Shown here: positions 8,312-29,460 of the stretch, one piece after another
Position numbering within the stretch: the first letter of the stretch is position 1
Layout: every line of letters begins with the position of its first letter
Source: Escherichia coli
Lineage (GTDB): Bacteria > Pseudomonadota > Gammaproteobacteria > Enterobacterales > Enterobacteriaceae
NCBI RefSeq assembly: GCF_013122565.1
Contig: NZ_CP053258.1
DNA: 64,000 nucleotides
Strand: one strand, 5' to 3'
Notes under the pieces: model-generated
What the model saw: the letters and a program-made list of their open reading frames with translations, nothing else
Databases searched by the model: none
What the model was told of the DNA's origin: nothing
Position numbers and translations under genes: made by a program

Positions 8312-10073
<1,762 letters not shown>

Positions 10074-10940: not shown

Positions 10941-10957
10941 CATCTTCTCCTGCATAT

Positions 10958-11902
10958 TCAGTTCTCTGTTCTGGCGCTTAACGAGCCAAATCCGGCAATC
11001 CACTCCGGGATTGGGCGGTAATAACGCCCTTCGCTACGCCAGTTGCCAAATGCAGAAATAGCGGCAAAAGCGGCGACCCAGGTTTTGATTTCATGTGTCG
11101 ACTTTCCGGCAATGGCGGAAAGCTCTTCGTTACTGACGGCATCCAGTTCCTGTATGCGTCCCTGCTCCAGCAAAGTCATGAACTGGTTATCCCAAATCGG
11201 GTTGAGCGGATGCAGAGTTCTCTGATCCTCAACAAACTTCTCAGCGGCGCTAATCACCCTTTGCTGACGCAATTCGCGCTCACTGGCGGGTAAATCTTTC
11301 CCGCTCCCCAACAGACGGTCGCGCATATGGGCATCGGCTTTCGCCAGTTCGGGCACCGGCGGCTGATGGGAAAGCCCACCGGAACCCAGGAACAGCACGC
11401 GTTTATTGAGAGTGCTGGTGAAACGTCCAATGGCTTCACCCAACATGCGGGTACGCTGGAAACCGGGCAGCGGCGTGGCGACACCGTTGATGAACACAGG
11501 CAGAACTGGCACCTTATCCAGCCCACCGAGCAGGAACTCCAGCGGCTGGGCGAACCCGTGGTCCACCTGCATACAGTAAGAAACGGCAAGATCGATCCCG
11601 CTCTTCATGACGGCATGCGCACAGGCCTCCGCCAACTCCACAGGCACTGGCAGCTCTCCTGCCGCACTACCGAAATCACCAATTGCCGTCGCTCCAACGC
11701 CTAAACAGAACGGTGGCATCACGTCATAGAAAAAGCCGTTGTAGTGATCTGGCGCAAACAGCACCACCAGTTCAGGGGAGAAAGCCGCAATACGCTCGCG
11801 GGCGCTGGCAATCACGCCATCGACCTCATCGAGCACCTCTTGCGCCGGGTCGACATACCCCACCAGCGGCGAGTGGGAAAGACAGTGAAGATAAGCGTGC
11901 AT
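10958..11902 (-). CDS. mhpB: 3-(2,3-dihydroxyphenyl)propionate 1,2-dioxygenase (extradiol)
   Basis: 314 aa LigB-type extradiol dioxygenase. Confidence 0.9.
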
Positions 11903-11903
11903 A

Positions 11904-13568
11904 TCAGGCTACCTTTTCGACAGAAACGTCGGCATCAGGGCGGGTCAGCGTCATCACCGACGCCAGTTTATTCAGGGTCTTGCCCAGGGTTTGCGGAATG
12001 GCGGTGGCGGCAACAAAGCGATCCGGGCGCATCACCACCAGCGAAGCATTGTGTTGCGCGAACCAGCTACGCAGGCGACCTTGCGTATCCCCCACGCGTA
12101 GTACGCCGTCGTGGTTATCCTGTGCGGTATGAATTTGCACTTCCGGCACCACCTGAATGAAGCGTGTGCCCAACGCGCGCCACTGCTGGATTTGCTCGTC
12201 GCTCATCCCCCACAGTGGATTGCATCCCCAGCCAATTACCGCGAAGTTCGCGCCGATCGCGTTATCGAGTAGCGTCACGTCGCCGTTTTCCAGCGTGACT
12301 TTCGGCTGAATAAACATCTTGCCGACCGGAGAGTGCTTCGCCTCGCCCTCACGCACCAGCGCACCGCCGTAATATTGCGGCATCGGCTTGAAGCGCATTT
12401 CGAGGAAGTAGCGTTTTACTGGCGGCAGATAATTCAGCAGCCAGGAAACGCCGTCACGTAACGTACCCTGCCAGCGTTTCGGCGGAGCCAGCACGTTGCC
12501 CGCCGTCACGGACAGGTCAATCATCGCTTTGGCGTGATCGCGACGTTCTTGTTGATAGGTATCGAGCAGCGCATCGCGGGCTTTCCCCTGGATAACCAAC
12601 GCCAGTTTCCATGCGAGGTTAAAGGCGTCGCGCATACCACTGTTATAGCCCTGCCCCTGCCATACCGGCATGATGTGCGCGGCATCGCCCGCCAGCAGTA
12701 CGCGATCAATACGGAAACGTTGCGCCAGTCGCGCGTTGTGGGTGTAGACACGCTGGCGAATCAATTCAACATTGTCCGGATTAGGCAGCACTTTGCTTAA
12801 CAGCTTGCGCATATTTTGCGGCTCACGCAGCTGTTCTTCGGTTTCTCCCGGCATCACCATGAATTCAAAGCGACGTACCGCATGAGGCAACGCGGCAGAA
12901 ACATACGGGCGCACCGGATCGCAGCACAAATAGATATGCGGCGTACTTAATGGATCGTTGGCGATATCTACCACAATCCACTGATTTGGTGCAGTTTTAC
13001 CTTCAAACGGCACATTCAGGGTGCGACGGACAAAACTTGCCCCACCATCACAGGCCACCAGCCACTGGGCTTTGACTATTTCCCGCTGCCCTTCTGCCGT
13101 TTTCAGGTGCAAGGTCACTTCGTCATCTTGCTGACTGAAGACCTCCAGCTCGCGGGAAAACAAGCAGCGCACATTCGGAAAACGCGACACCCCTTCCAGC
13201 ATCACCGCATCGACCTGCGGCTGAATAAAGGCGTTACGGCGCGGCCAGCCAAATTCATCGGTCATTGGCTGAATATCAGCAAAACAGCGGCCCTTCGGGG
13301 TGAGAAAACGCATCGCGTGCCACGGCGTAGTATGCGGCAGAACATTATCGACCAGGCCGACCGACTGCATGGTGCGCAGCGCCTCGTCATCAATACCAAT
13401 CGCACGCGGGTAGTCGATCAACTTATCGAGTTTCTCCACCACCAGCACGTCAATGCCCATCTGGCCGAGATAGTTCGCCATCATCAGCCCGACCGGACCG
13501 GCACCAGCGATCGCCACCTGAACGCTATGGTTAACAGCAGGCTGGATGTCAGGGTGTTGTATTGCCAT
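11904..13568 (-). CDS. mhpA: 3-(3-hydroxyphenyl)propionate hydroxylase (FAD monooxygenase)
   Basis: 554 aa, N-terminal FAD fold [18 protein letters not shown]. Confidence 0.92.
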
Positions 13569-13709
13569 TTCAGTACCTCACGACTCGGACAAAATGCCGT
13601 TGCGCGCACAGTACAGCGCAACTTACTTTGTTAAAAACATGTAAATGATTTTTTATTGTGCGCTCAGTATAGGAAGGGTGTTTTCGGCTACAATCAAAAC
13701 ATGCCCGAA

Positions 13710-13726
13710 TGTGCACCAGGTGCACA
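13710..13726. promoter_or_regulatory. 17-bp perfect palindrome tgtgcaccaggtgcaca in the mhpR-mhpA divergent control region (candidate MhpR operator / CRP-like site)
   Basis: Perfect dyad symmetry located between divergent mhpA and mhpR starts. Confidence 0.55.
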
Positions 13727-13758
13727 ACGTTGTTTTAACTATAGAAATGTCAATTAAT

Positions 13759-14592
13759 ATGCAGAACAATGAGCAGACGGAATACAAAACCGTGCGCGGC
13801 TTAACCCGCGGTCTAATGTTATTAAATATGTTAAATAAACTTGACGGCGGTGCCAGCGTCGGGCTGCTGGCGGAACTCAGCGGCCTGCATCGCACCACTG
13901 TGCGGCGACTGCTGGAGACGCTGCAGGAAGAGGGATATGTCCGGCGTAGTCCCTCCGATGATAGTTTTCGTCTGACCATCAAAGTGCGGCAATTAAGCGA
14001 AGGATTTCGTGACGAACAGTGGATTTCTGCACTGGCGGCCCCACTGCTGGGCGATCTGTTACGCGAAGTGGTATGGCCGACAGATGTGTCCACGCTGGAT
14101 GTTGATGCAATGGTGGTACGCGAAACCACTCACCGTTTCAGCCGCTTATCCTTTCACCGGGCAATGGTCGGGCGACGTTTGCCGCTTCTGAAAACCGCCT
14201 CGGGCCTGACCTGGTTGGCCTTTTGCCCGGAACAAGAACGCAAGGAATTAATCGAGATGTTAGCCTCCCGCCCCGGTGATGACTATCAACTGGCACGAGA
14301 ACCGTTAAAGCTGGAAGCCATTCTGGCGCGCGCGCGCAAAGAGGGTTACGGACAGAACTACCGCGGCTGGGATCAGGAGGAGAAGATCGCCTCTATCGCC
14401 GTACCGCTGCGCAGTGAACAACGGGTGATTGGCTGTTTGAATCTGGTGTATATGGCGAGCGCAATGACCATCGAACAGGCAGCGGAAAAGCATCTTCCGG
14501 CACTACAACGGGTAGCAAAACAGATCGAAGAAGGGGTTGAATCGCAGGCTATTCTGGTGGCCGGACGGCGAAGCGGCGTGCATTTACGCTAG
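13759..14592 (+). CDS. mhpR: IclR-family transcriptional activator of the mhp operon
   Basis: 277 aa from MQNNEQTEYKTVRGLTRGL; IclR HTH plus effector domain; divergent from mhpA. Confidence 0.9.
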   Translation: MQNNEQTEYKTVRGLTRGLMLLNMLNKLDGGASVGLLAELSGLHRTTVRRLLETLQEEGYVRRSPSDDSFRLTIKVRQLSEGFRDEQWISALAAPLLGDLLREVVWPTDVSTLDVDAMVVRETTHRFSRLSFHRAMVGRRLPLLKTASGLTWLAFCPEQERKELIEMLASRPGDDYQLAREPLKLEAILARARKEGYGQNYRGWDQEEKIASIAVPLRSEQRVIGCLNLVYMASAMTIEQAAEKHLPALQRVAKQIEEGVESQAILVAGRRSGVHLR

Positions 14593-14706
14593 TTACGCCA
14601 ATGTGTAATTTGGCCCATTCTCATCGTTATTCGCCCATTTGCCCACATGCACAGTACGGGCTGCACGCTACGCTAATGACATCAATACTGTGATGTGGAG
14701 CAAATC

Positions 14707-15483
14707 ATGAAAATTACGCAAATTCGTAATGCCACCCAAATTATCCAATACGCTGGCAAAACATTTCTTATCGACCCGTTACTCGCGCCTAAAGGAAGTT
14801 ATCCGGGTTTTGCCGGAACGGCACGCGCAGAAATCCGCAATCCAACGGTAGAATTACCGTGCGATTTAACAACGTTACTCAACGTTGACGCCCTAATCGT
14901 GACCCATTTGCATGAAGATCACTGGGACGAAACAGCCTCCCGCGTCGTTCCTAAAGATAAACTGATTTATGTGCAAAATGAGCAAGATGCTGAATCACTG
15001 AATAAACAAGGATTTACGCATCTTACCGTACTTACCGACGAGACTAAATTTGGCGATATTACTCTGCATAAAACGACAGGGCAGCACGGCTCCGATCGCA
15101 CCTATGCCGACCCGGCTATGGCGAAGCGTTTAGGCGCAGCCTGCGGCGTTGTTTTCCAGCACCCGACAGAGAAAACGCTCTATCTGGCTGGCGATACCCT
15201 CTGGCGTGACGACGTCGAGGCTACAATGCTAACTTTCCAACCAGAAGTGGTTGTGTTGAATGCCGGATTTGCGCATGTTCTGGGGCATGGCGCGATAATT
15301 ATGGGAGCAGAAGATATTCTCAAAACACATTTTACCCTGCCAGAAGCGCAAATTGTCGCGACACATATGGAGGCCGTAAACCACTGTTTGCTGACGCGTG
15401 ATGCGCTCAAGGAATACGCCAGAGATAATCAAATTATCGAATTTGTGAACGTACCAGAAGATGGTGAAACGTTGACATTCTAA
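14707..15483 (+). CDS. MBL-fold metallo-hydrolase
   Basis: 258 aa; metallo-beta-lactamase signature THLHEDHWD (HxHxDH); GGAG SD 6 nt upstream; track ORF starts at GTG 14695. Confidence 0.75.
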   Translation: MKITQIRNATQIIQYAGKTFLIDPLLAPKGSYPGFAGTARAEIRNPTVELPCDLTTLLNVDALIVTHLHEDHWDETASRVVPKDKLIYVQNEQDAESLNKQGFTHLTVLTDETKFGDITLHKTTGQHGSDRTYADPAMAKRLGAACGVVFQHPTEKTLYLAGDTLWRDDVEATMLTFQPEVVVLNAGFAHVLGHGAIIMGAEDILKTHFTLPEAQIVATHMEAVNHCLLTRDALKEYARDNQIIEFVNVPEDGETLTF

Positions 15484-15502
15484 TTCGGAGATAAAGAGTG
15501 TT

Positions 15503-16456
15503 ATGCGCCCGCTAACTGTTGCCATTATCGCCGTTGCCGGTTTTAGTCCTTTTCACCTTTCCGTACCGTTTATCGTATTTAGCGAAAAAATGGCGGAGAA
15601 AAAACACTTTCACGTAATTATCTGCGCTGAAAAGCCGGGAAACGTGGACTCTGCCGATGGGTTTTCCGTAACCGCCACCCATGACTATACCGCAGTCATC
15701 CAGGCGGATATTGTGATAATTCCTTACTGGGGAACAATTACACAAAAACCGCCACAAAAACTGCTGGAAGCCTTAACGACCGCACGGGATAACGGCGCAC
15801 AGATTGTCGGGCTTTGCCTGGGCACGTTTGTGCTCGGCTATGCAGGTTTACTGAAAAATAAGCGTGCCGCCACGCACTGGGAGTTCGAGCGTGAATTTCA
15901 GGCACGTTTTCCACAAACACATCTGGATATTAACGCGTTGTACGTAGACGATGACGGCATTATTACCTCTGCCGGTACTGCCGCGGCGCTGGATTGCTGT
16001 TTGTATATTGTTCGGCAACATTTTGGCAGCGACTATGCTAACCATATTGCCCGACGGATGGTCGTACCGCCATATCGCACCGGCGGTCAGGCGCAGTTTA
16101 TTGAGCAACCAGTGCCGAAAAATACCCATGATGAACGCATAAACCTCCTGCTGGATTACCTGCGGCAAAACATTGCGCAACAGCATGATCTCGACTCGCT
16201 GGCGCAGCGAGTAATGATGAGTCGCCGCACATTAACTCGCCATTTTATGAAAGCGACCGGTTCGAGTATCGCCGAATGGCTCATTACTGAACGCTTACGC
16301 CGTAGCCAGGAACTGTTGGGATCCAGTCAGTTGCCCGTTGAGCGGATAGCGGCTGAGGTGGGTTTTCTCTCACCTGTGACCTGGCGTCAGCATTTTAAAT
16401 CTCACTTCGGCGTCAGCCCCGCCGAATGGCGCAAAACCTTTCGCGGTATGGCATGA
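15503..16456 (+). CDS. GlxA-family transcriptional regulator (DJ-1/PfpI domain + AraC-type HTH)
   Basis: 317 aa; N-terminal class I glutamine amidotransferase-like fold, C-terminal AraC HTH (RRTLTRHFMKATG ... SPAEWRK); 20 nt after MBL gene, probably co-transcribed. Confidence 0.8.
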   Translation: MRPLTVAIIAVAGFSPFHLSVPFIVFSEKMAEKKHFHVIICAEKPGNVDSADGFSVTATHDYTAVIQADIVIIPYWGTITQKPPQKLLEALTTARDNGAQIVGLCLGTFVLGYAGLLKNKRAATHWEFEREFQARFPQTHLDINALYVDDDGIITSAGTAAALDCCLYIVRQHFGSDYANHIARRMVVPPYRTGGQAQFIEQPVPKNTHDERINLLLDYLRQNIAQQHDLDSLAQRVMMSRRTLTRHFMKATGSSIAEWLITERLRRSQELLGSSQLPVERIAAEVGFLSPVTWRQHFKSHFGVSPAEWRKTFRGMA

Positions 16457-16650
16457 TAGCGCGTGCAGGAAAGTCAATTCAGGTTCCCCACTAACCAACT
16501 GAATTGTGGGAAGATTGCTTTATCAGGCTTAATACAAGCCATTCGGTAACAGTTTTTCTCGCTCCCGCCCTGTCACTCCTGTTGATTGTGCAATGTTACA
16601 AAAATGCTTCATTTTTGTTGATTTTCTACTGTGATCAATTCGGCAATATC

Positions 16651-16703
16651 CTCTCCTGAATTTCACCAGACTACTTCCAGCCCATTCGCAATATCAGGAG
16701 AGA
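16651..16703 (+). promoter_or_regulatory. Leader inverted repeat (ctctcctga ... tcaggagag) overlapping the Shine-Dalgarno of the acyl-CoA ligase gene
   Basis: 9-bp perfect inverted repeat; both arms preceded by gcaatatc; 3' arm contains the AGGAG RBS 4 nt upstream of ATG 16707. Confidence 0.35.
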
Positions 16704-16706
16704 CAA

Positions 16707-18263
16707 ATGAGCAGCACCTCCGCCGACTTCCAGAATTTGTATCAGGCACTGAGTCACAGCGCCGCCCGCAGTCCGAATGACCTGGCGCTGGCGTTTGAGG
16801 ATCAGCGCTATATGTACCGCGATTTTCACCTGCGGGTACAGCGGACGATGGCGCAACTTGACCGCAGCTGGTCGTTGCGCAAAGGCGACCGGATCCTGCT
16901 GGCCCTGGGGAATCATCCCGCTTTTTGCGAAGTCCTTTTTGCGGCAGTTGGTCTGGGCATCGAGGTGGTGCCTTTCAGCACTAAGCTTAAGCAGGCCGAG
17001 AGCGAGGAGCTGGTGGGTCATATCGCGCCCCAGGTCGTGCTGTTCGATGCAACCGTGCAGGACTGGCTGAAAAACACCCCCAACGCGCGCGCTGTTTCAC
17101 TTAGTGAATGGCTGGCGCTTTCTCTTCCCGAACCGCTGACTCGCCTGCCGGCCCAGGTTAACCGCGACGACACGGCGGTGATGATGTTTACCTCAGGTAC
17201 TACCGGGGAGCCAAAAGGCGCGATTATCACCCACCATAATCTGCTCTGCGCGATTGACGCCTATACGCAAAAACTGAATCTGACCGCTGCGGATAGCACT
17301 ATTCTGGCGGTGCCTATTTATCACATCACTGGCCTGTCGGCGCTGCTGGCGCTGTTTATTAGCCTTGGTGCGAGCATCTGGCTGCAACACCGGTTCAATG
17401 CCTCGCAGGTGATCAATACCCTGCGCGAGCAAAATATTACCTTTCTGCACGGCTCGCCAACCATCTTTATCCTCCTATGTCAGGCGGCACGCGAAATAAG
17501 CGACAGCCATCCGGGCGATTTTCCCGCGCTACGGACGATCGCTTGCGGTGCGGGCCACCTGAGCGACGGCCTTATCAAAGAGTTAAAAACGCTGTTCCCG
17601 CATACGGCAATTCAGCCGATCTACGGGCTCACCGAAACGACCTCACCCGCGACGATTTTTCCAGGCGACGTCTGGGGTAGCGAGAAATGCGGCAGTTCGG
17701 GCCAGGCGATCCCCGGCCTCACGATTACGATTCGCAACGATCGCCAGCAACGTCTCCCTGCCGGACAAATTGGGCATATCTGGCTGAAAGGCGATGTGGT
17801 CATCCGCGAGTACTGGCAGCACAGCGAAAGACGCCCGAGCTGCGATGAACAGGGCTGGTTTTGTACGGGTGATTTGGGCTATCTCGACGACGAAGGCTGG
17901 CTGTACATCAAAGACCGCAGTAAAGACATGATCAATCGCGGTGGGGAGAAAATTTACTCTCTGGAGCTGGAAAACATTCTCTCTACCTATCGGGGAGTAC
18001 GGGAAGTCGCCGTGATCCCGGCCCCCAGCCCGCTCTATGGTGAAGAGCCGGTGGCGTTTATCGTGCCGGACGGTCAACACCACCTGACAAGCGAAGAGAT
18101 CCTCTGCTGGCTGAAGGTCAAAATTGCCCGCTTTAAGCTTCCGGCACGCATTATTTTCACCCGCATTTTACCCCGTACCCATAACGGAAAAGTGAGCAAA
18201 CAACAGCTCAAAACACGCCTTGCGGAATCGATCATCACGTTATCAACGGAGGATAAACAGTGA
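16707..18263 (+). CDS. AMP-dependent synthetase / acyl-CoA ligase (class I adenylate-forming enzyme)
   Basis: 518 aa; AMP-binding motif TSGTTGEPKGA, downstream GYGLTE-like and adenylation core motifs. Confidence 0.85.
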   Translation: MSSTSADFQNLYQALSHSAARSPNDLALAFEDQRYMYRDFHLRVQRTMAQLDRSWSLRKGDRILLALGNHPAFCEVLFAAVGLGIEVVPFSTKLKQAESEELVGHIAPQVVLFDATVQDWLKNTPNARAVSLSEWLALSLPEPLTRLPAQVNRDDTAVMMFTSGTTGEPKGAIITHHNLLCAIDAYTQKLNLTAADSTILAVPIYHITGLSALLALFISLGASIWLQHRFNASQVINTLREQNITFLHGSPTIFILLCQAAREISDSHPGDFPALRTIACGAGHLSDGLIKELKTLFPHTAIQPIYGLTETTSPATIFPGDVWGSEKCGSSGQAIPGLTITIRNDRQQRLPAGQIGHIWLKGDVVIREYWQHSERRPSCDEQGWFCTGDLGYLDDEGWLYIKDRSKDMINRGGEKIYSLELENILSTYRGVREVAVIPAPSPLYGEEPVAFIVPDGQHHLTSEEILCWLKVKIARFKLPARIIFTRILPRTHNGKVSKQQLKTRLAESIITLSTEDKQ

Positions 18264-19852
18264 GTAACAAATTTATCAGCGCCCATGAAGCGGCGCAGTT
18301 AGTCACCAGCGGCGATACCGTCTGCACCGTCGGGATGACGCTTATCGGCGCGGCAGAATCCATTTTAGCGGCCATTGAAGCGCGCTTTCTGACCGAGGGC
18401 ACACCGCGCGATCTGACATTGTTACATGCCGCAGGGCAAAGCGATCGGCAGCGCGGCATTCAGCACTTCGCCCATCAGGGAATGGTGACGCGGCTTATCG
18501 GTTCGCACTGGGGCCTTGCGCCGCGCTGGATGGCGATGATCAACAACAACGAAGTGGAAGCCTGGTGCCTGCCGCAGGGGCAGATCGTCCATCTTTATAG
18601 CGCGATGGCCGCCGGACTTACAGGGCGACTCTCCCCCGTCGGGCTGGGTACTTTTGTCGATCCGCGCATAGAAGGCGGGCGGATGAATGCCCGTACCCGC
18701 GAAAAGCCAGATCTGATTGAGCATGTGATGTTTCGCGGCGACGAGTATCTGTTTTATCCAGCCATTCCCCTGAACGTCGTCATTGTGCGCGGAACTCATG
18801 CCGATGAAGACGGCAACCTCACTACGGATGAAGAGGTCATGAAACTGGAAGTTCTGCACGCGGTTCTCGCCGCCAGACGTTACGGGGCGAAGGTGCTGGC
18901 GCAGGTGAAATATCGTGTGGCGAAAGGTTCGCTGCATCCGAAAAGCGTCACCGTTCCTGGCAACCTGATCGATGCCATTGTGGTGTGCAACGAGCCGCAG
19001 ACGGATCACCGCCAAAGCTCCAGTTGGGACTTCGATCCGGCACTGTGCGGCGATATCCAGTTGCCCGCAGCGCAGAATGCGCCGCTGCAACTCGACCTGC
19101 GCAAACTTATCGGGCGGATCGCCTGCCGCTATCTGACGCCCGGCTGTGTCATCAATCTTGGCACCGGGATCCCCAATGATGTGATTGGCGCCATCATCCA
19201 TGAAGAACAGCTCGGCGAGCAAGTCACCATCACCGTTGAATCGGGGATCTACGGTGGGCAGCAGGCGGGCGGCGTTGATTTTGGTATCGGTCGTAATCTG
19301 AGCGCGATGATAAGTCACCAGGATCAAATGCTCTATTACAACGGCGCGGGCGTCGATATCACCTTTATGGGTGCCGGCGAGATGGATCCGCACGGTCACG
19401 TCAACGCCACGCGGCTCGGTGCATCCTGCCCCGGCGCAGGCGGTTTTATCGACATCACGCAGAATGCCCGCCACGTCGTGTTCTGCTCCTCTTTTACCGC
19501 CAAAGGGCTGGAGATTGCCTGTGAAAATGGGCAGTTGCATATCCTGCGCGAAGGCGAGGTACGTAAGTTCGTCGCCGGGGTTAATCAGATTTCTTATAAC
19601 GGTGAGCTGGCCCGCAACAAAGGCCAAACCATGCATTACGTCACCGAACGGGCAGTGTTCGAACTACGTCCGCAGGGACCGGTGCTGACGGAAATCGCCC
19701 CCGGCATCGATCTTGAGCGCGACATCCTGGCACATATGGATTTTCGTCCGGCTATCGCCGGGGATCTTAAGGTAATGGACAGCCGTTTATTTGCCCCGCA
19801 GCCCTGTGGCCTGGCGGAACATCTGTCCCACAATTCATCCTCTGACTCATAA
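18260..19852 (+). CDS. Family I CoA-transferase, fused alpha/beta (YdiF-like acyl-CoA:acetate/3-ketoacid CoA transferase)
   Basis: 530 aa; architecture and ESG glutamate region resemble E. coli YdiF; GTG start overlaps ligase stop by 4 nt with GGAGGA SD. Confidence 0.8.
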   Translation: MSNKFISAHEAAQLVTSGDTVCTVGMTLIGAAESILAAIEARFLTEGTPRDLTLLHAAGQSDRQRGIQHFAHQGMVTRLIGSHWGLAPRWMAMINNNEVEAWCLPQGQIVHLYSAMAAGLTGRLSPVGLGTFVDPRIEGGRMNARTREKPDLIEHVMFRGDEYLFYPAIPLNVVIVRGTHADEDGNLTTDEEVMKLEVLHAVLAARRYGAKVLAQVKYRVAKGSLHPKSVTVPGNLIDAIVVCNEPQTDHRQSSSWDFDPALCGDIQLPAAQNAPLQLDLRKLIGRIACRYLTPGCVINLGTGIPNDVIGAIIHEEQLGEQVTITVESGIYGGQQAGGVDFGIGRNLSAMISHQDQMLYYNGAGVDITFMGAGEMDPHGHVNATRLGASCPGAGGFIDITQNARHVVFCSSFTAKGLEIACENGQLHILREGEVRKFVAGVNQISYNGELARNKGQTMHYVTERAVFELRPQGPVLTEIAPGIDLERDILAHMDFRPAIAGDLKVMDSRLFAPQPCGLAEHLSHNSSSDS

Positions 19853-19863
19853 GGAAATTAACT

Positions 19864-20598
19864 ATGAAACTAGCCAGTAAAACGGCCATTGTCACCGGCG
19901 CCGCGCGCGGTATCGGATTTGGTATTGCCCAGGTGCTTGCGCGAGAAGGTGCCCGAGTCATCATCGCCGACCGCGACCCACATGGCGAAGCCACTGCCGC
20001 ATCCCTGCGCGAACAGGGTGCCCAGGCGCTGTTTATCAGCTGCAATATTGGCGATAAAACGCAGGTTGAAGCGCTGTTTTCCCAAGCCGAAGAAGCGTTT
20101 GGCCCGGTGGATATTCTGGTTAATAACGCCGGTATCAACCGCGACGCCATGTTGCACAAACTCACTGAAGCGGACTGGGACACGGTGATTGACGTCAATA
20201 TGAAGGGCACGTTTCTCTGTATGCAGCAGGCGGCAATCCGTATGCGCGAGCGCGGCACGGGCCGCATTATCAATATCGCTTCCGCAAGCTGGCTTGGCAA
20301 CGTTGGGCAAACCAACTATTCGGCGTCAAAAGCGGGCGTGGTCGGGATGACTAAAACCGCCTGTCGCGAACTGGCAAAAAAAGGGGTCACGGTTAACGCC
20401 ATCTGCCCCGGTTTTATTGATACCGATATGACGCGCGGCGTCCCGGAAAACGTCTGGCAAATCATGATCAACAAAATTCCTGCGGGCTACGCCGGGGAGG
20501 CGAAAGACGTTGGCGAGTGTGTGGCGTTTCTGGCGTCCGACGGCGCGCGCTATATCAATGGTGAAGTGATTAATGTCGGCGGCGGCATGGTTCTGTAA
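19864..20598 (+). CDS. Short-chain dehydrogenase/reductase (FabG-like 3-oxoacyl / 3-hydroxyacyl oxidoreductase)
   Basis: 244 aa; TGAARGIG cofactor motif, catalytic YSASK (YxxxK); AAGGA SD. Confidence 0.85.
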   Translation: MKLASKTAIVTGAARGIGFGIAQVLAREGARVIIADRDPHGEATAASLREQGAQALFISCNIGDKTQVEALFSQAEEAFGPVDILVNNAGINRDAMLHKLTEADWDTVIDVNMKGTFLCMQQAAIRMRERGTGRIINIASASWLGNVGQTNYSASKAGVVGMTKTACRELAKKGVTVNAICPGFIDTDMTRGVPENVWQIMINKIPAGYAGEAKDVGECVAFLASDGARYINGEVINVGGGMVL

Positions 20599-20608
20599 GG
20601 GGAAAAAG

Positions 20609-21799
20609 ATGATACAGGCTAATGATATTGTGGTGGTCAGCGGCGTCCGTACCGCTATTGGCACGTTTAATGGCAGTCTTAAGCATACCCACCAGCATGA
20701 CCTGGGGGCAGCGGTCATTCGCGAAGCGGTCAGCCGCGCCGGACTTGCGCCGAAAGATATCGATGAAGTGATCGTCGGCAACGTTGGGCAAATCGCCGAA
20801 AGCGGTTTTATCGCCCGCATCTGCCAGCTTCGGGCGGGGATCCCGCAGGAAAGTACCGCGTATTCGGTTAACCGCCAGTGCGGCTCCGGTCTACAGGCCC
20901 TGGCAGACGGCATGATGCAGCTACAAAGCGGTCAGGCCGATGTCGTCGTCGCCTGCGGAACTGAAAATATGACCCAACTGCCCTACTACCTGCGTAAAGC
21001 GCGGGATGGCTATCGCATGGGTCATGGCGAGCTGGAAGATGGTCTGATTTCTATCCTCACCTGGCCTGAAGGGCCTTATCACAACGGCATCACGGCGGAA
21101 AACGTCGCGCAACAGTTCGGGATCACCCGCGAAGCGATGGACGATTTCGCCTGGTCAAGCCAGCAGAAGGCGCTGAAAGCCATCGCGCAGGATCGCTTTC
21201 GCGAACAGATCCTGCCCCTTGAAGTGCCGGACGGCAAAAAAGCCTCCCGCCTGTTCGCGGTTGATGAACACCCGCGTGACACCCCACGCGAAAAGCTCGC
21301 CACGCTGCGACCGGCATTTAAAGCCGACGGCGTGGTGACGGCAGCCAACTCATCCGGCATTAACGACGGTGCGGCTGCGCTGGTGATGATGACCCGTCAG
21401 CAGGCGGAAAAGCGTGGCTTAACCCCACTAATGCGGATCCGCGGCTGGGCGGTTGCCGGCTGCGGCGCAGATATCATGGGCTTTGGCCCTGCTCCCGCGA
21501 CCCGGCGTCTGATGGACCGTCTCAATATGGATGTCCACGCCATAGATTTAATTGAACTCAATGAGGCCTTCGCCGCCCAGGCGCTGGCGGTGATGAACGA
21601 TCTGCGTCTCGATCCGGCCCGCGTCAACGTTAATGGCGGCGCAATCGCCCTCGGACACCCGGTGGGTGCCAGCGGTGCGATCTTGCCGGTCAAACTCATG
21701 TATGAAATGGCGCGCAGCGGTGCACGTACCGGTCTGGTCACGATGTGCATCGGCGGCGGTCAGGGAATTTCTATGCTGTTCGAGCGCGAAGGCGCTTAG
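20609..21799 (+). CDS. Thiolase (acetyl-CoA C-acyl/acetyltransferase)
   Basis: 396 aa from MIQANDIVVVSGVRTAIG; active-site NRQCGSGLQA, C-terminal GHPVGASG and CIGGGQG motifs; track ORF begins 12 codons earlier. Confidence 0.85.
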   Translation: MIQANDIVVVSGVRTAIGTFNGSLKHTHQHDLGAAVIREAVSRAGLAPKDIDEVIVGNVGQIAESGFIARICQLRAGIPQESTAYSVNRQCGSGLQALADGMMQLQSGQADVVVACGTENMTQLPYYLRKARDGYRMGHGELEDGLISILTWPEGPYHNGITAENVAQQFGITREAMDDFAWSSQQKALKAIAQDRFREQILPLEVPDGKKASRLFAVDEHPRDTPREKLATLRPAFKADGVVTAANSSGINDGAAALVMMTRQQAEKRGLTPLMRIRGWAVAGCGADIMGFGPAPATRRLMDRLNMDVHAIDLIELNEAFAAQALAVMNDLRLDPARVNVNGGAIALGHPVGASGAILPVKLMYEMARSGARTGLVTMCIGGGQGISMLFEREGA

Positions 21800-21807
21800 G
21801 AAAAGAC

Positions 21808-21830
21808 GGCCCGAAGTGGGGCTTCGGGCC
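21808..21830 (+). other. GC-rich hairpin (ggcccgaag tgggg cttcgggcc) between thiolase and MFS genes; no U-tract
   Basis: 9-bp perfect stem with 5-nt loop 9 nt after thiolase stop. Confidence 0.4.
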
Positions 21831-21934
21831 GAGCGTCGTTCGGGCCAGTACCCGGCGACAACCTATGAGCTGACGAACGGGATCGTGTCGATCCCGGCAA
21901 GGCTTCTGACCACGAATACGGGGAAATAATAACC

Positions 21935-23272
21935 ATGTCCGCAATAAATGAAAAGGTGATAAACGGGACGCAGCTACAACGCACCCATAAAAAGATCTAC
22001 CGCCATTTGATGCCGCTACTTATCGTGGCGTACATCATAAGCTTTATTGATCGTACCAATATCGGCATGGCGAAAGCGACCATGTCGGTGGATATCGGCC
22101 TTTCCGCAACCGCATTCGGCCTCGGAGCCGGGTTGTTTTTTCTCACCTACGCAGTGCTGGAGATCCCAAGCAACCTGTTTTTAACCCGAATTGGCGCGCG
22201 GCGCTGGATCGCCCGCATCATGATCACCTGGGGAATCATCTCCTGCGGCATGGCGTTTGTCACCGGACCTACGTCATTTTACGTGATGCGCTTATTGCTC
22301 GGCGCCGCCGAAGCGGGGCTGTATCCGGGCATTATCTACTACCTGACCCTTTGGTTTGGTCGCGAAGAGCGCGCGAAAGCCACCGGCCTTTTCCTGCTGG
22401 GGGTCTGTCTGGCCAATATTATCGGTGCGCCGCTGGGCGGATTGTTATTAAACCTTGATGGTATGTCCGGCTGGCACGGCTGGCAGTGGATGTTTTTTAT
22501 CGAAGGGCTGCCTGCGATACTGCTGGCGTTTGTCGTCTGGCGCAAGCTGCCGGATAAACCTGCCGATGCTCGCTGGCTGGACAGCAACGACGTGCAGGCC
22601 ATTAACGCGGTGCTGGAGAAAGAAGCGCAAGAGACGCGTCATACACCAAACCGCTTCTCCCTCAAAACCGCACTCACCACCCGCGTATTTTTGTTGCTGG
22701 TGCTGATTTACTTTACCCACCAGTTTTCAGTTTACGGCCTGAGTTATTTTCTGCCGGGGATCATTGGTAGCTGGGGCCAGCTTACGCCGCTGCAGATAGG
22801 TCTGCTGACCGCTATCCCGTGGATTGCAGCGGCGGCTGGCGGCATCCTGCTGCCGCGTTTCGCCCGGACGGAACAGCGTTCACGCAGAATGCTGATGGCC
22901 GGATACCTGGTCATGGCCACCGGCATGGCGATTGGTGCAATTTCCGGTCACGGCGTTGCGCTGCTTGGCTTCTCGCTGGCCGCTTTCATGTTCTTCGCTA
23001 TGCAATCCATCATCTTTAACTGGCTCCCCTCGATCATGAGCGGGCATATGCTGGCGGGTAGCTTCGGCCTGCTTAACTGCCTTGGTCTGTGCGGAGGCTT
23101 TCTCGGGCCGTTTATTCTCGGTGCGTTTGAGGATCGAACCGGCGCGGCAACGTCAGGTTTATGGTTCGCCGTCGGGCTGTTGATTGTCGGCGCGTTGGTA
23201 TCTCTGTTCATCAAAGGTTCGTCATCCCTGGGCCATGCTTCGGCAAAACAGGCCTGTGGCGAAAAAGCTTAA
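21935..23272 (+). CDS. MFS transporter, anion:cation symporter (ACS) family-like (hydroxy-acid/aldonate-type permease)
   Basis: 445 aa, 12 predicted TM segments, FIDRTNIG motif typical of ACS-family permeases. Confidence 0.75.
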   Translation: MSAINEKVINGTQLQRTHKKIYRHLMPLLIVAYIISFIDRTNIGMAKATMSVDIGLSATAFGLGAGLFFLTYAVLEIPSNLFLTRIGARRWIARIMITWGIISCGMAFVTGPTSFYVMRLLLGAAEAGLYPGIIYYLTLWFGREERAKATGLFLLGVCLANIIGAPLGGLLLNLDGMSGWHGWQWMFFIEGLPAILLAFVVWRKLPDKPADARWLDSNDVQAINAVLEKEAQETRHTPNRFSLKTALTTRVFLLLVLIYFTHQFSVYGLSYFLPGIIGSWGQLTPLQIGLLTAIPWIAAAAGGILLPRFARTEQRSRRMLMAGYLVMATGMAIGAISGHGVALLGFSLAAFMFFAMQSIIFNWLPSIMSGHMLAGSFGLLNCLGLCGGFLGPFILGAFEDRTGAATSGLWFAVGLLIVGALVSLFIKGSSSLGHASAKQACGEKA

Positions 23273-23285
23273 TTAAGAGGTTCTT

Positions 23286-24164
23286 ATGCGCATCGAAGTC
23301 TTACTGGATTTAAAAACACGGCTCGGTGAAAGCCCGGTCTGGGATGTCGAACAACAGCGCCTTTGGTGGGTGGACAGCCTTGATGGACGCCTGTTTGCCT
23401 GTAATGCGCAGGGCGGCGCGATTAAGAGCTGGGATGTACGGCAGAAAATTGGCTCTTTTGCCCTACGCCAGAACGGGGAAGGCGCGGTGGTGGCGCTTCA
23501 AAATGGCGTTCATCTGCTCGACTTCGCCAGCGGCGAGCTGACGCTGCTGCACCACCCGGAAGCGGACCGCCCCTTTAACCGACTTAACGATGGCAAAGTC
23601 GATCGTCAGGGACGCTTTCTGTTCGGGTCAATGGATATGCGCGAGGAGGAGCCGAGCGGCGCGCTGTATCGCCTGGACGCCGATCTATCACTGCACGTAC
23701 TGAAGAAAAATATCATCGTCTCCAACGCCCCCTGCTGGAGTCCATCCGGCGAGACGTTTTATTTTGCCGATACCTGGTCGGGCAAAATCCGCGCCTGGGA
23801 TTACAACACCGCGACCGGAGATATCTCCGCAGAACGGCTCTTTTGCCATGTCGATCGCAGCGAAGGCGGCGCAGCGGATGGTGCTACCGTGGACAGCGAA
23901 GGGTGTCTGTGGAATGCGCTGGTCTACGCGGGCAAGTTAGTACGCTACACGCCGGAAGGGCAGATTGATCGCATCATTGAGATGCCGGTGAAAAAAGTCA
24001 CCAGTGTGATGTTCGGCGGCGAAAATCTCGACGTGCTGTACGTCACTTCAATGGCGCAGCCGCCCCTGGCGCGTTTCCCGGAAGATAATCAGTTGCGTGG
24101 CAGCCTGTTCGCCATTTACGACCTGGGCGTGACCGGCGTTGCGGAACGGCGTTTTGCCGGATAA
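23286..24164 (+). CDS. SMP-30/gluconolactonase/LRE-family lactonase (regucalcin-like beta-propeller)
   Basis: 292 aa; family motifs SPVWD, NDGKVDRQGRF, DGATVDSEGCLW; AAGAGG SD. Confidence 0.8.
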   Translation: MRIEVLLDLKTRLGESPVWDVEQQRLWWVDSLDGRLFACNAQGGAIKSWDVRQKIGSFALRQNGEGAVVALQNGVHLLDFASGELTLLHHPEADRPFNRLNDGKVDRQGRFLFGSMDMREEEPSGALYRLDADLSLHVLKKNIIVSNAPCWSPSGETFYFADTWSGKIRAWDYNTATGDISAERLFCHVDRSEGGAADGATVDSEGCLWNALVYAGKLVRYTPEGQIDRIIEMPVKKVTSVMFGGENLDVLYVTSMAQPPLARFPEDNQLRGSLFAIYDLGVTGVAERRFAG

Positions 24165-24254
24165 GCGAACTTTCGGTTCGCCGCGATAACCATAATACGC
24201 GGCGAACTGACTCTGACCCTGACACATGGCGGCGCGCCGTGGAGTAAAAAAACT

Positions 24255-25592
24255 ATGACAACACTCAATCAAATACCTGCCAGCAAACGCGATGGAAAAA
24301 AGCGGCTGATCCACCGTTTCTCCTGGGTTTCATTGCTGGTTTGCTGGCTTATCTGGGTGCTCAACGCCTACGATCGCGAGATGATCCTGCGCCTTGGCCC
24401 GGTGATTTCTAAGGAGTTCTCGCTCTCGCCGGAACAATGGGGGAACGTCGTAGCACTGATTATGGTGGCCCTTGCGGTGCTGGATATCCCGGGCGCCATC
24501 TGGAGCGATCGTTACGGATCAGGCTGGAAGCGAGCACGCTTTCAGGTGCCGCTGGTGCTGGGCTACACCGCGTTGTCTTTTATCTCCGGGATAAAAGCTG
24601 TCAGCCACGGTCTGACGACCTTTGTATTGCTGCGCGTTGGGGTCAACCTCGGGGCTGGCTGGGGCGAGCCCGTCGGCGTCAGCAACACCGCAGAGTGGTG
24701 GCCGAAAGAGAAACGCGGTTTCGCGCTGGGGGTGCATCATACCGGTTATCCCATTGGCGCACTGCTAAGCGGTGTCGTGGCAAGCCTGGTACTTTCCACA
24801 TTTGGCGAAGGTAACTGGCGCTACTGTTTCCTGCTGGCGCTGATCGTCGCTATTCCGCTGATGCTCTTCTGGGCGAAATATTCCACCGCCGCCCGAATCA
24901 ACACGCTTTATCAGCATATCGATAGTCAGGGAATGACGCGCCCGGCGACGCAGGAAAGCAATCATGTTGCGAAAGGCGAAGGGCTGAAAACGTTTTTACG
25001 TACCCTGCGCAATCGCAATATTTCGCTGACGGCAGGCAATACTCTGCTGACGCAGATTGTCTATATGGGCATTAACGTTGTGCTGCCGCCGTATCTTTAT
25101 CATGTCTCCGGCCTGTCGCTGGCAGCATCCGCCGGGATGAGTATTATCTTTACGCTTACTGGTACTCTGGGGCAGATAATTTGGCCCTGGCTGTCCGACA
25201 GTTTTGGTCGTAAACGTACCCTGATTGTCTGCGGTCTGTGGATGAGTATCGGCATTGCACTGTTCTATTTCGCCACGAATATGCCGCGCCTTATCGCCAT
25301 TCAGCTATTTTTTGGACTGGTGGCAAACGCCGTGTGGCCTATCTATTACGCAATGGCCTCGGACTCCGCCGAAGAACGCGCCACCTCTACTGCAAACGGA
25401 ATTATCACCACGGCAATGTTTATTGGCGGTGGCATTTCGCCATTGCTCATGGGCTGGCTAATTCAGCTTGGTGGGGGTTGGGAAAACCCGGCGGGTTATA
25501 TCTACGCCTTCTTTACGATGGCGGGATGTGCGCTGCTGGGGATGCTGTTGCAGTTAATGACCAGTGATAAAACGCCGCGCAAAGCGCATTAA
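24255..25592 (+). CDS. MFS transporter (second permease of the cluster)
   Basis: 445 aa polytopic protein with MFS loop motif (SDRYGSGWKR), GGAG SD. Confidence 0.75.
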   Translation: MTTLNQIPASKRDGKKRLIHRFSWVSLLVCWLIWVLNAYDREMILRLGPVISKEFSLSPEQWGNVVALIMVALAVLDIPGAIWSDRYGSGWKRARFQVPLVLGYTALSFISGIKAVSHGLTTFVLLRVGVNLGAGWGEPVGVSNTAEWWPKEKRGFALGVHHTGYPIGALLSGVVASLVLSTFGEGNWRYCFLLALIVAIPLMLFWAKYSTAARINTLYQHIDSQGMTRPATQESNHVAKGEGLKTFLRTLRNRNISLTAGNTLLTQIVYMGINVVLPPYLYHVSGLSLAASAGMSIIFTLTGTLGQIIWPWLSDSFGRKRTLIVCGLWMSIGIALFYFATNMPRLIAIQLFFGLVANAVWPIYYAMASDSAEERATSTANGIITTAMFIGGGISPLLMGWLIQLGGGWENPAGYIYAFFTMAGCALLGMLLQLMTSDKTPRKAH

Positions 25593-25605
25593 TTCAGGAG
25601 AACGC

Positions 25606-25728
25606 ATGAAGATTGTTATCGCGCTGGATCCTTTTAAGAGTCGGCTCCTCGCAGACGCTGCGGAGAATGTTATACGAACCTTTGTGAGCGGACGACGCAA
25701 AGAGAAACATAAGCGGATGACCTTATGA
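25606..25728 (+). pseudogene. 40-codon ORF resembling the N-terminus of glycerate kinase (GarK/GlxK-like remnant), translationally coupled (ATGA) to the CdaR-family gene
   Basis: Translation MKIVIALDPFKSRLLADAAENVIRTF... resembles the MKIVIAPDSFKESLSA N-terminus of glycerate kinases (recalled from memory); strong AGGAG SD; stop overlaps cdaR-like ATG. Confidence 0.35.
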
Positions 25729-26882
25729 TTATTACGACGGCGCTGGCTAATGAAATTGTCACCAGGGCGATGGCAATCATTCATCATAACGTGAACGTAA
25801 TTGACCATTATGGACAGATCATTGCCTCAGGTGAACGGCATCGTATCGGCGAGCAACATGAAATCGCCCGTGAGGTGATACGCACGGGTAAACGCATTTG
25901 TATTAACAACGCTGCTGAAGCCGCGCGTTTTAAGAATGTGCTTCCGGGTATTAATCATCCCATTATCTATGACGATCGCGTGGTGATGGTTGTGGGTATC
26001 AGCGGCGATCCCGCAGCGATCAGCCGCTATGCTGAACTGGCGGTGCTCACCGCCGAGCTGCTGGTCCGCCAGGCCGCCGAGATGCAAGAAACCAACTGGC
26101 GACAGCGCCTGCGCGATACCTTGTTTTGTCAGTATCTTGAGCAAGGTACCTCGCCCGCCGGGCAGGAATCACTCCATCGCCTGCTCGAAACTGGCTTCGC
26201 TTTTGATGCGCCGCTGGTACCAGTCGTCGTATCAGTGCAGGTTGAGCAGCACCAGCTAAGCGAAATTTTAAGTACGCTGCTGCGGGAGTTCTCCCGGTTG
26301 GCCGGGGTAAGAGACGTTATTTTGCTCGGCAGCAATGAGATTTTACTCCTCAATACGCTGAGCGAACCGCAGGAAACATTGCTGCGCAGCATTGAGTTTG
26401 TTCTTAGCAATCAGATCAGTCATTACCATATCGGGATAGGCGTACAGGCGGATAGCGCCCCGGATATTCGCGAGGCCATCAGATTCGCCCGTTCGGTGAT
26501 TGAAGTTGGGAGCAAAGTGCAGCCACAGCGGCAGATCTACTATTTTCGCGAAATGGCCATGCTCTGCCTGTTCCGGGTACTGGAAGACAGCTATATGGTG
26601 AATTTTTTTATCAATAATGTCCGCCAGTTGCTTGAACATGATTCTGGCGAAGTGCTGCTGGATACCCTGAGCAGCTTTATTGCCAATAACGCAGAGCTGG
26701 GTAAAACATCGCTGCTGTTGGGTATTCACCGCAATACGCTCACCTATCGTCTACAGCAGATAAAAAAGCATATCCAGCTCGATCCGATGGTCTTCACCGA
26801 CCTGACGCAACTGGCGGTGTCGGTACACTGCTATCGTCGGCAGAACCCGCGCCAGAGCGAATGGATCGATAGCTTAAGTTAA
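25725..26882 (+). CDS. CdaR/SdaR-family (sugar diacid regulator-like) transcriptional regulator
   Basis: 385 aa; N-terminal diacid-regulator domain and C-terminal PucR-type HTH; overall architecture like E. coli CdaR. Confidence 0.8.
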   Translation: MIITTALANEIVTRAMAIIHHNVNVIDHYGQIIASGERHRIGEQHEIAREVIRTGKRICINNAAEAARFKNVLPGINHPIIYDDRVVMVVGISGDPAAISRYAELAVLTAELLVRQAAEMQETNWRQRLRDTLFCQYLEQGTSPAGQESLHRLLETGFAFDAPLVPVVVSVQVEQHQLSEILSTLLREFSRLAGVRDVILLGSNEILLLNTLSEPQETLLRSIEFVLSNQISHYHIGIGVQADSAPDIREAIRFARSVIEVGSKVQPQRQIYYFREMAMLCLFRVLEDSYMVNFFINNVRQLLEHDSGEVLLDTLSSFIANNAELGKTSLLLGIHRNTLTYRLQQIKKHIQLDPMVFTDLTQLAVSVHCYRRQNPRQSEWIDSLS

Positions 26883-26930
26883 AACGCGATGGGGTCAGTT
26901 CATTATTTCAAAGAGCATAAGTACAGGAAC

Positions 26931-26972
26931 AAATGTCGGATGCGCCACTGGGCACATCCGACAATCTTTTAT
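26931..26972. terminator. Bidirectional hairpin terminator between the cdaR-like gene and cynX
   Basis: tgtcggatgcgcc actg ggcacatccgaca stem (one mismatch) flanked by T-rich tracts on both strands; REP-like sequence. Confidence 0.6.
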
Positions 26973-27003
26973 TGTTCCATTGTCTCGCAAAACAAGCGTC
27001 GCA

Positions 27004-28158: not shown

Positions 28159-28190
28159 CGTGAACGTCTTTTGATGGTTACGCATGGCTG

Positions 28191-28679
<489 letters not shown>

Positions 28680-28691
28680 TTAAAAATAAGG

Positions 28692-29351: not shown

Positions 29352-29460
29352 CGTTAACCTCTGTCTGTCTCTGGAATGAGAGGCAGACTACTCGCCGATT
29401 GTCATAAGGTAAAAGTCTCATTTATGATGAGTTCTATTGGATTTACTTATAGGTTGGCGA
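29352..29460. promoter_or_regulatory. cynR / cynTSX divergent promoter region (LysR-type control region)
   Basis: 109-bp AT-rich spacer between divergent cynT and cynR starts. Confidence 0.5.

Follow-up and report, generated by a model that had tools for sequence, protein, structure and literature searches.

A gene cluster in the lac position of an Escherichia coli genome is very likely a 2-deoxy-D-ribonate catabolic operon

We analyzed a 64,000-nucleotide stretch of an Escherichia coli genome (contig NZ_CP053258.1 of assembly GCF_013122565.1), which we will call the window. Between positions 16,707 and 21,799, four genes on the + strand encode an acyl-coenzyme A (acyl-CoA) ligase, a fused CoA-transferase, a short-chain dehydrogenase/reductase (SDR), and a thiolase. 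They belong to a larger cluster, which continues on the same strand with a transporter of the major facilitator superfamily (MFS), a lactonase of the SMP-30 family, a second MFS transporter, the place of a glycerate kinase gene, and a regulator of the CdaR family. [quoted passage not shown] The system as such is already known, as this ortholog has been published and characterized genetically.

The four genes are tightly packed. The ligase and transferase genes overlap by 4 nucleotides (nt): the sequence GTGA at 18260-18263 holds both the GTG start codon of the transferase (at 18260) and the TGA stop codon of the ligase (18261-18263). The transferase gene ends at 19852, 11 nt before the ATG of the SDR gene at 19864, and the SDR gene ends at 20598, 10 nt before the ATG of the thiolase gene at 20609. 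The open reading frame (ORF) of the thiolase, as called mechanically, begins at 20573; we take the ATG at 20609 as the real start because it sits behind GGGGAAAAAG and yields a protein of 396 amino acids, as annotated in Klebsiella. A preliminary description of this DNA had reported four packed genes with overlapping or 10-bp junctions, and both the ORF list and a direct reading of the junctions bear out every coordinate.

Over 20 loci, belonging to Klebsiella, Raoultella, Franconibacter, Shimwellia, Affinibrenneria, Serratia, and Providencia, show the same gene order with the same tight junctions, so the arrangement is not a chance juxtaposition. Five of the cluster's genes have ratios of nonsynonymous to synonymous substitution (dN/dS) of 0.04-0.09 relative to Klebsiella. 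A terminator scan of the window found no intrinsic terminator on the + strand between the genes of the cluster, although the consensus scans, for terminators as well as for sigma-70 promoters, were uninformative for the + strand. We infer that the genes of the cluster are co-transcribed.

The ligase is an ANL (class I adenylate-forming) enzyme. It contains TSGTTGEPKG at 162, YGLTE at 306, TGD at 387, RSKD at 404, and PRTHNGKV at 489, and thus has motifs A3 (the P-loop), A5, A7, and A8 as well as the A10 lysine. It is 93.8% identical to the protein from K. michiganensis, which carries PF00501 and PF13193. (The K. michiganensis proteins that we compared were drawn from the same 90% clusters as the proteins of the window, and identities are over the full length.) All matches of the ligase to NCBIfam models fall under the equivalog cut-offs, so the family does not set the class of substrate.

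The CoA-transferase aligns over residues 5-516 to E. coli YdiF (PDB 2AHU; E = 1e-106), and its E327 (in TVESG) aligns with the catalytic Glu333 of the 2AHU chain. Both CoA_trans domains lie in one chain, and the glutamate that forms the enzyme-CoA thioester is present, as in other fused YdiF-type transferases. Close homologs carry PF01144, and the protein is 94% identical to those of Klebsiella spp. YdiF (PDB 2AHU, 2AHV, and 2AHW) is an acyl-CoA:acetate CoA-transferase with the same fused two-domain build and nearly the same length (531 amino acids, versus 530 for the transferase in the window). However, the two are paralogs rather than orthologs, and their substrates presumably differ. In E. 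coli K-12, ydiF sits in the ydiF-ydiO-ydiQRST-fadK cluster, which is involved in short-chain acyl-CoA metabolism.

The SDR has the motifs TGAARGIG, NNAG, and YSASK and is 95.9% identical to the K. michiganensis protein. It is also about 96% identical, over all 244 residues, to proteins of solved structure (PDB 7TZP and 6T6N/6T6P). The entry 6T6N is "FabG2 (NADH-dependent)" from K. pneumoniae, a protein that was deposited as a 3-oxoacyl-ACP reductase (ACP is short for acyl carrier protein) and that the structural work treats as a FabG paralog. Because the SDR exceeds the cut-off of the NCBIfam FabG model NF004198 (352.4 bits versus 296 bits), annotation pipelines name it FabG. A FabG of type II fatty-acid synthesis would use NADPH to reduce 3-oxoacyl-ACP and would be encoded in a fab cluster. 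In contrast, the gene in the window lies in a catabolic operon, and because the K. pneumoniae protein that is about 96% identical is described as NADH-dependent, the SDR fits a catabolic dehydrogenase better than an NADPH-dependent FabG. The genomic context and the fitness of mutants in the ortholog (discussed below) indicate that it is probably a catabolic 3-hydroxyacyl-CoA dehydrogenase.

The thiolase scores 452.7 bits against TIGR01930 (cut-off 240.55). It has the nucleophilic cysteine of the superfamily, the NEAF and histidine motifs, and the second catalytic cysteine (NRQCGSG at 88, NEAF at 318, GHPVG at 349, and CIGGGQG at 380), and it shares 95.2% identity with its K. michiganensis counterpart. 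Reading of the motifs, together with the alignment to 2AHU, shows that the catalytic residues are intact in all four core enzymes. Profile hidden Markov models, motifs, and structure-database searches thus agree with the families to which the four proteins had first been assigned.

Across the cluster, the proteins of the window are 93.8-96.2% identical to those of K. michiganensis or its sister species. A scan of species representatives identified the cluster in K. oxytoca, K. grimontii, and K. pneumoniae; it did not return K. michiganensis, whose locus we reached by looking up cluster members and their contigs. In K. michiganensis GCA_015721435.2, nine genes stand in the published order and encode the expected Pfam families. 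The genome scan also turned up syntenic loci in Raoultella, [Erwinia] mediterraneensis, Franconibacter, Serratia, Providencia, and Zobellella, and a comparison by tblastn showed the same order, from the CoA-synthetase (the acyl-CoA ligase) to the second MFS transporter, across 18 loci. A search for this combination of ligase, transferase, SDR, thiolase, and SMP-30 protein, which the preliminary description had recommended, therefore finds conserved loci in several genera. In K. pneumoniae, the whole segment is about 89% identical at the DNA level and the order is the same, with an extra glycerate kinase gene between the second MFS transporter and the regulator. Among the genera whose clusters include a glycerate kinase gene are Klebsiella, Raoultella, Serratia, Providencia, and Zobellella.

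The window shares with the M5al cluster its gene order, its short or overlapping junctions, its upstream region, and the spacer between the thiolase and the first MFS transporter. It differs in having a scar in place of the kinase and in lying in an Escherichia backbone. Furthermore, the clusters of K. pneumoniae and K. michiganensis adjoin deoC and genes of the deoR and ribokinase types, whereas the cluster in the window is flanked by a GlxA-type gene and cynX.

The function of the ortholog was studied by Price et al. 2019 (mSystems 4:e00297-18, PMC6365646), who measured genome-wide transposon mutant fitness in K. michiganensis M5al. The cluster BWI76_RS23695-RS23730 was important for growth on 2-deoxy-D-ribonate and not on deoxynucleosides or in 92 other conditions (PMC6365646). 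It encodes a CoA-synthetase (RS23695), a CoA-transferase (RS23700), a β-hydroxyacyl-CoA dehydrogenase (RS23705), a thiolase (RS23710), an MFS transporter (RS23715), a lactonase (RS23720), a second MFS transporter (RS23725), and a glycerate kinase (RS23730) (PMC6365646). On deoxyribonate, the mean fitness of mutants was -4.0 for the first MFS transporter and -1.4 for the second, and mutants in the lactonase had fitness of -1.1 to -1.3 (PMC6365646). The preliminary description had called the substrate unknown; on the contrary, mutant fitness ties this ortholog set, with the protein identities given above and equal gene order, to 2-deoxy-D-ribonate. The whole module is homologous to a characterized operon with a known substrate, and the characterization there is genetic rather than enzymological. 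For the window, then, the assignment of deoxyribonate as the substrate rests on the fitness of mutants in the ortholog.

Deoxyribonate is 3,4,5-trihydroxypentanoate. In the proposed pathway, it would enter the cell by the two MFS permeases, and deoxyribonolactone would be opened by the SMP-30 lactonase. The ligase would use ATP to convert deoxyribonate to deoxyribonyl-CoA, the NAD+-dependent SDR would oxidize C3 to give 3-keto-deoxyribonyl-CoA, and the thiolase would cleave this to acetyl-CoA and D-glyceryl-CoA. No acyl-CoA dehydrogenase or hydratase would be needed, because deoxyribonate is already a 3-hydroxy acid. The YdiF-type transferase would then strip the CoA from glyceryl-CoA to release glycerate, and glycerate kinase would convert glycerate to 2-phosphoglycerate, which enters glycolysis. 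That the clusters of most genera include a glycerate kinase speaks for a glyceryl product of three carbons and hence for a five-carbon substrate. These same reactions were proposed by Price et al. 2019, who also questioned what the natural substrates of such pathways are (PMC6365646). The chemistry given in the preliminary description (CoA activation, oxidation of a 3-hydroxyacyl-CoA, and thiolysis, together with a lactonase and permeases, for a hydroxy acid that a lactone can supply) fits the pathway proposed for the K. michiganensis ortholog and was essentially right. Our comparisons show orthology, intact catalytic motifs, and the NADH preference of the SDR ortholog from K. pneumoniae; the individual reactions in the window, the acceptor of CoA, and the ligand of the regulator are inferred.

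The presence of both an ATP-dependent ligase and a CoA-transferase, which had seemed unusual, is explained if the transferase frees glycerate from glyceryl-CoA, as Price et al. 2019 place it at this last step. The most economical arrangement, which is our own suggestion, is that the transferase hands the CoA to a fresh molecule of deoxyribonate. As the transferase would recycle CoA onto incoming substrate, the ligase would only prime the cycle.

Pairs of a ligase and a transferase are a recurring design, as with CaiC and CaiB in the carnitine pathway, fadK and ydiF in E. coli, and fadD and fadX in Staphylococcus aureus. In the CaiC/CaiB and FadD/FadX systems, an ATP-dependent ligase primes the pathway and a transferase shuttles CoA between the product and the substrate, which is how we suppose that the enzymes in the window would work. 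However, CaiB is a family-III transferase, and its substrates are unrelated to those of the system in the window. The match of the transferase in the window to the NCBIfam model for staphylococcal FadX (384.5 bits) is below the cut-off of 750 bits, and the substrates are again unrelated. In GapMind 2022, the removal of CoA from glyceryl-CoA is still listed as an unknown step, and because this step is listed as a gap, a transferase of the type found in the window is a reasonable candidate to fill it.

A second known system for comparison is the operon PS417_07245-07265 of Pseudomonas simiae WCS417, for the oxidative catabolism of deoxyribose and deoxyribonate. Its substrate does not differ, nor do its end products (acetyl-CoA and glyceryl-CoA, which leads to glycerate), and it shares the lactonase and the two MFS transporters: the Klebsiella lactonase RS23720 is 70% identical to the P. 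simiae lactonase, and identities of 70% and >50% were reported between the P. simiae and Klebsiella proteins (PMC6365646); these values are for Klebsiella rather than for the window. Unlike the cluster in the window, the P. simiae operon lacks a ligase, a thiolase, and a CoA-transferase, and CoA enters at the cleavage step instead of at the start (PMC6365646).

Several points weigh against assigning the cluster in the window to deoxyribonate. Its orthology to strain M5al is drawn through other K. michiganensis genomes and sister species. In the literature that we searched, we found no assay of any enzyme of the acyl-CoA route. The NCBIfam scores of the ligase and the transferase are all below the curated equivalog cut-offs, and specificity is unreadable from family membership. 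Finally, the glycerate kinase of the cluster is deleted in the window, so in this lineage the pathway may be incomplete, rewired, or in decay. Franconibacter, Shimwellia, and Affinibrenneria, as well as one metagenomic relative, likewise have clusters without the kinase; because several other lineages do without it, the kinase is not obligatory, which slightly weakens the argument from a three-carbon product.

One could argue that the physiological substrate is some other 3-hydroxy or 3-keto acid (another 2-deoxy-aldonate, 3,4-dihydroxybutyrate, or 3-hydroxybutyrate/acetoacetate) and that the effect on deoxyribonate is fortuitous. The thiolase is closest to acetoacetyl-CoA or BktB-type thiolases, and the family of the transferase includes acetoacetate and propionate CoA-transferases. 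The literature search returned no enzymatic data on any of the steps, the window and several genera lack the kinase, and Price et al. 2019 had their own question about natural substrates (PMC6365646). Nevertheless, we consider another substrate unlikely. The phenotype of the Klebsiella cluster on deoxyribonate was accompanied by none in the 92 other conditions (PMC6365646), and the lactonase and both permeases are common to the P. simiae operon for deoxyribose and deoxyribonate. Also, the cluster includes the glycerate kinase in most genera, and in Klebsiella it adjoins genes for deoxyribose.

It is even less likely that the cluster in the window is a decaying remnant that no longer supports the complete pathway. 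The glycerate kinase has shrunk to a scar of 40 codons: in tblastn, the K. pneumoniae kinase matches the window at residues 1-11 and 365-390 only, and an alignment with K. oxytoca shows both ends of the kinase within the 132-nt gap between the second MFS transporter and the regulator. Moreover, neither megablast nor a sensitive blastn search found the module in any of 5,426 complete E. coli genomes, and the exact proteins of the cluster (QJU25330-QJU25337) are on record from one E. coli contig of 4.82 Mb. Looking up the exact transferase and ligase of the window among indexed contigs gave no record. However, the remaining eight ORFs keep their full length and all of their catalytic motifs. The deletion is in frame, and the stop codon of the scar and the ATG of the regulator continue to overlap (ATGA), so the coupling of the scar to the regulator gene is preserved. 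Versions of the cluster without the kinase persist in other genera. Because the cluster's own kinase is deleted, glycerate would need a kinase that is encoded elsewhere, and E. coli-type genomes normally carry garK and glxK, two genes that are not in the window.

That the module is biosynthetic, with condensation by the thiolase followed by a FabG-type reduction (as in polyhydroxyalkanoate synthesis or reverse β-oxidation), is extremely unlikely: the SDR does score above the FabG cut-off, and the models nearest to the thiolase are BktB and PhaA (with scores below their cut-offs), but the SDR's ortholog in K. pneumoniae depends on NADH, the cluster encodes two importers and a lactonase (as well as, elsewhere, a glycerate kinase) and lacks a polymerase or thioesterase, and the mutant phenotypes of the ortholog are catabolic (PMC6365646).

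If these genes are a deoxyribonate catabolic operon, as we think, then the labels from annotation pipelines ("FabG", "thiolase family protein", "class I adenylate-forming enzyme", and "acyl CoA:acetate/3-ketoacid CoA transferase") could be replaced by a name that describes the operon's role. Deoxyribonate is a product of DNA damage and of sugar oxidation. Because it occurs in human urine, the cluster would be relevant to the Enterobacteriaceae of the gut and the urinary tract.

Table 1. Features of the cluster and its control regions, with positions in the window
Feature	Positions	Strand	Description
Conserved upstream control region	16585-16706	+	Blocks that are invariant in an alignment of 10 loci from different genera
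Pseudo-palindrome TTGTGCAATGTTACAA	16586-16601	+	Invariant across 10 loci; candidate regulator site
CRP-like site, TGTGA-N6-nnnCA	16630-16645	+	Invariant across 10 loci; candidate class-II-type CRP site
-10-like element, CAGACT	16667-16672	+	Invariant across 10 loci; candidate weak -10
Ribosome-binding site AGGAGAG	16696-16702	+	Before the start of the ligase
Acyl-CoA ligase	16707-18263	+	518 amino acids; ANL adenylate-forming enzyme; proposed deoxyribonate-CoA ligase; ortholog of BWI76_RS23695
Fused alpha/beta family-I CoA-transferase	18260-19852	+	530 amino acids, GTG start; proposed glyceryl-CoA:acceptor CoA-transferase; ortholog of BWI76_RS23700
Classical SDR	19864-20598	+	244 amino acids; proposed NAD+-dependent 3-hydroxyacyl-CoA (deoxyribonyl-CoA) dehydrogenase; ortholog of BWI76_RS23705
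[quoted passage not shown]
Conserved structured spacer	21800-21934	+	135 nt; hairpins P1 (21808-21830), P2 (~21835-21859), and P3 (21878-21896), then the ribosome-binding site of MFS transporter 1
MFS transporter 1	21935-23272	+	445 amino acids; proposed main deoxyribonate importer; ortholog of BWI76_RS23715
SMP-30/gluconolactonase-family lactonase	23286-24164	+	292 amino acids; proposed deoxyribonolactonase; ortholog of BWI76_RS23720
MFS transporter 2	24255-25592	+	445 amino acids; 95.3% identical to K. grimontii; ortholog of BWI76_RS23725
In-frame deletion scar of glycerate kinase	25606-25728	+	40-codon ORF; about the first 11 and about the last 26 codons of a 391-amino-acid kinase
CdaR-family (sugar-diacid type) regulator	25725-26882	+	385 amino acids; NF008550 at 156.6 bits, below the cut-off
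GC-rich hairpin	26934-26963		13-bp stem; lies where the regulator gene and cynX converge; right-hand limit of the cluster

As for the other proteins of the cluster (Table 1), MFS transporter 1 is 96.2% identical to its K. michiganensis counterpart, and its matches to TIGR00893 and HpaX-like models are below their cut-offs. The lactonase matches PF08450 (the SGL six-bladed propeller) over residues 13-256 (E = 1.3e-80), which places it in the SMP-30/gluconolactonase/LRE family. Its best relative of solved structure is 7PLB, an SMP-30 family protein (E = 1.3e-41), and it is 95.9% identical to the protein from K. grimontii. The CdaR-type protein is likely to be the cluster-specific regulator. It shares 94.5% identity with the protein from K. 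michiganensis, which carries PF05651 and PF13556. In nearly all loci, its gene is found at the cluster's 3' end (in one locus, it is divergent). Downstream of the regulator gene, the terminator scan flagged the hairpin at 26934-26963 on the - strand, and on the + strand ATCTTTTATTGTT follows it, so it is a probable bidirectional terminator.

Upstream of the ligase, the invariant blocks may correspond to a regulator site, a CRP site, and a -10 element; this is an interpretation of the alignment, and it fits their spacing. The pseudo-palindrome occurs just once in the window. We also considered an internal operator in common with the upstream region. For the one motif that we tested, we rejected it, as TTGTGCAANGTTACAA (16586-16601) is present only upstream of the ligase.

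The spacer between the thiolase and MFS transporter 1 is 96% identical to that of Klebsiella, as compared to 75-81% identity at the third codon positions of the flanking genes and 73% for the spacer between the lactonase and MFS transporter 2. It folds into three hairpins (z = -2.5). P1 begins 8-9 nt after the stop codon of the thiolase, and its GUGGGGC apex is invariant from Klebsiella to Providencia. The pair that closes this apex is A-U, U-A, or C-G depending on the clade, and the outermost pair of P1 changes from G-C to A-U in Providencia. In P3, the stem is kept while the loop varies within Klebsiella; the stem has a G-C to C-G swap in [Erwinia] mediterraneensis, and in one locus a C-to-U change keeps the pairing on the + strand only. 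Because the diversity is small (18 distinct spacers), this covariation is suggestive rather than strong.

A single copy of the motif GCCCGANGTGGGGCNTCGGGC is found in the window and in each related locus. Among its 65 matches in metagenomes, 56 are in the context of the thiolase and MFS genes, and the other 9 have non-complementary closing bases (N/N'). We therefore rejected the idea that P1 is a generic (REP-like) repeat or a general terminator: it is present in a single copy per locus and those 56 matches are specific to this context. An Rfam search of 16300-27100 gave no match at E ≤ 1. On the + strand, no U-tract follows P1; because an A-rich run lies before it on the + strand, P1 resembles a terminator for the - strand. 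It is doubtful, though conceivable, that the spacer is an undescribed cis-acting RNA that is specific to this family of operons. As to what it does, it might be an intercistronic element for processing or stability that uncouples the expression of the enzymes from that of the transporter; it might be a leader for the permease that responds to a ligand or a protein; or it might be the terminator, or 3' end, of an antisense RNA.

The cluster (approximately 16484-26916, or 10.4 kb) has a GC content of 56.0%, as compared to 52.6% in the rest of the window. In E. coli genomes with the GlxA-type gene, lacIZYA lies between this gene and cynX (as at 28458-34857 of locus L003), and the cluster in the window fills exactly that position. 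Presumably, the source genome does not have lac at this locus. This genome shows that the lac slot of E. coli can hold a different catabolic island. Comparing the module to the 5,426 complete genomes by blast yielded matches to just the final part of the GlxA-type gene and to a small portion of a paralogous thiolase. We also considered whether the cluster might be borne on a plasmid and found no evidence for it: the plasmid collection matched only K. pneumoniae records, which are 0.28-5.4 Mb and contain the whole cluster, and cloning vectors with lacI. At least one of these K. pneumoniae records (5.37 Mb) is evidently a chromosome that was filed as a plasmid.

Two side observations bear on the distribution of the cluster. 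A 20.6-kb contig that is labelled as part of a metagenome-assembled genome (MAG) of Sporobacter termitidis (JAJUHI010000021.1) has the cluster, with protein identities of 93-97%; the contig is probably enterobacterial and was mis-binned into a Firmicutes MAG. Also, the 90% cluster of MFS transporter 1 includes a protein from Salmonella enterica serovar Java (on 11 contigs), which suggests that the operon is scattered sporadically among the Enterobacteriaceae.

To the left of the cluster, the first 16.4 kb of the window contain the mhp genes, mhpR, a gene for an MBL-fold hydrolase (MBL is short for metallo-β-lactamase), and the GlxA-type regulator, and this region is fully covered in 359 of the 5,426 complete E. 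coli genomes. The MBL-fold hydrolase and the regulator, which is a GlxA/FtrA-type AraC regulator (DJ-1/PfpI and HTH_18), lie at 14695-16456, between mhpR and the cluster. Both genes are part of the accessory backbone of E. coli and not of the cluster. Identity to the best complete E. coli genome varies by region: 99.1% for 1-16400, about 97.6% for 26917-34000 (cyn, cod, and prpE), and about 96.2% for 40000-64000 (bet and ykg). Because the identity at the far right is only about 96.2%, the source appears to be a divergent E. coli-like lineage, and the unevenness suggests that it may be a divergent Escherichia lineage whose mhp side was recombined. The occupancy of the lac slot, the scar of the kinase, and the conserved spacer RNA may be of interest to those who study genome evolution in E. 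coli or the regulation of operons.

The left boundary of the cluster also relates to the origin of the lacI promoter. Homology between the window and E. coli covers the end of the GlxA-type gene plus another 27 nt after its stop codon, and it breaks about 10 nt before the GTG of lacI. At 16423-16483, the final ~35 nt of the gene, together with these 27 nt, match the promoter and the 5' untranslated region of lacI (GCGCAAAACCTTTCGCGGTATGGCATGATAGCGC...GTCAATTCAGG). Given where the homology breaks, the promoter and 5' untranslated region of lacI correspond to the 3' end of the GlxA-type gene. A 60-nt stretch at the end of the GlxA-type gene matches the cloning vectors that bear lacI, which agrees with this correspondence. 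The alignment thus indicates that the source of the lacI promoter is the 3' end of the neighboring GlxA-type gene. Many strains of E. coli keep only a 99-nt remnant of the GlxA-type gene upstream of lacI, as in Nissle 1917 (L001, 8959-9057).

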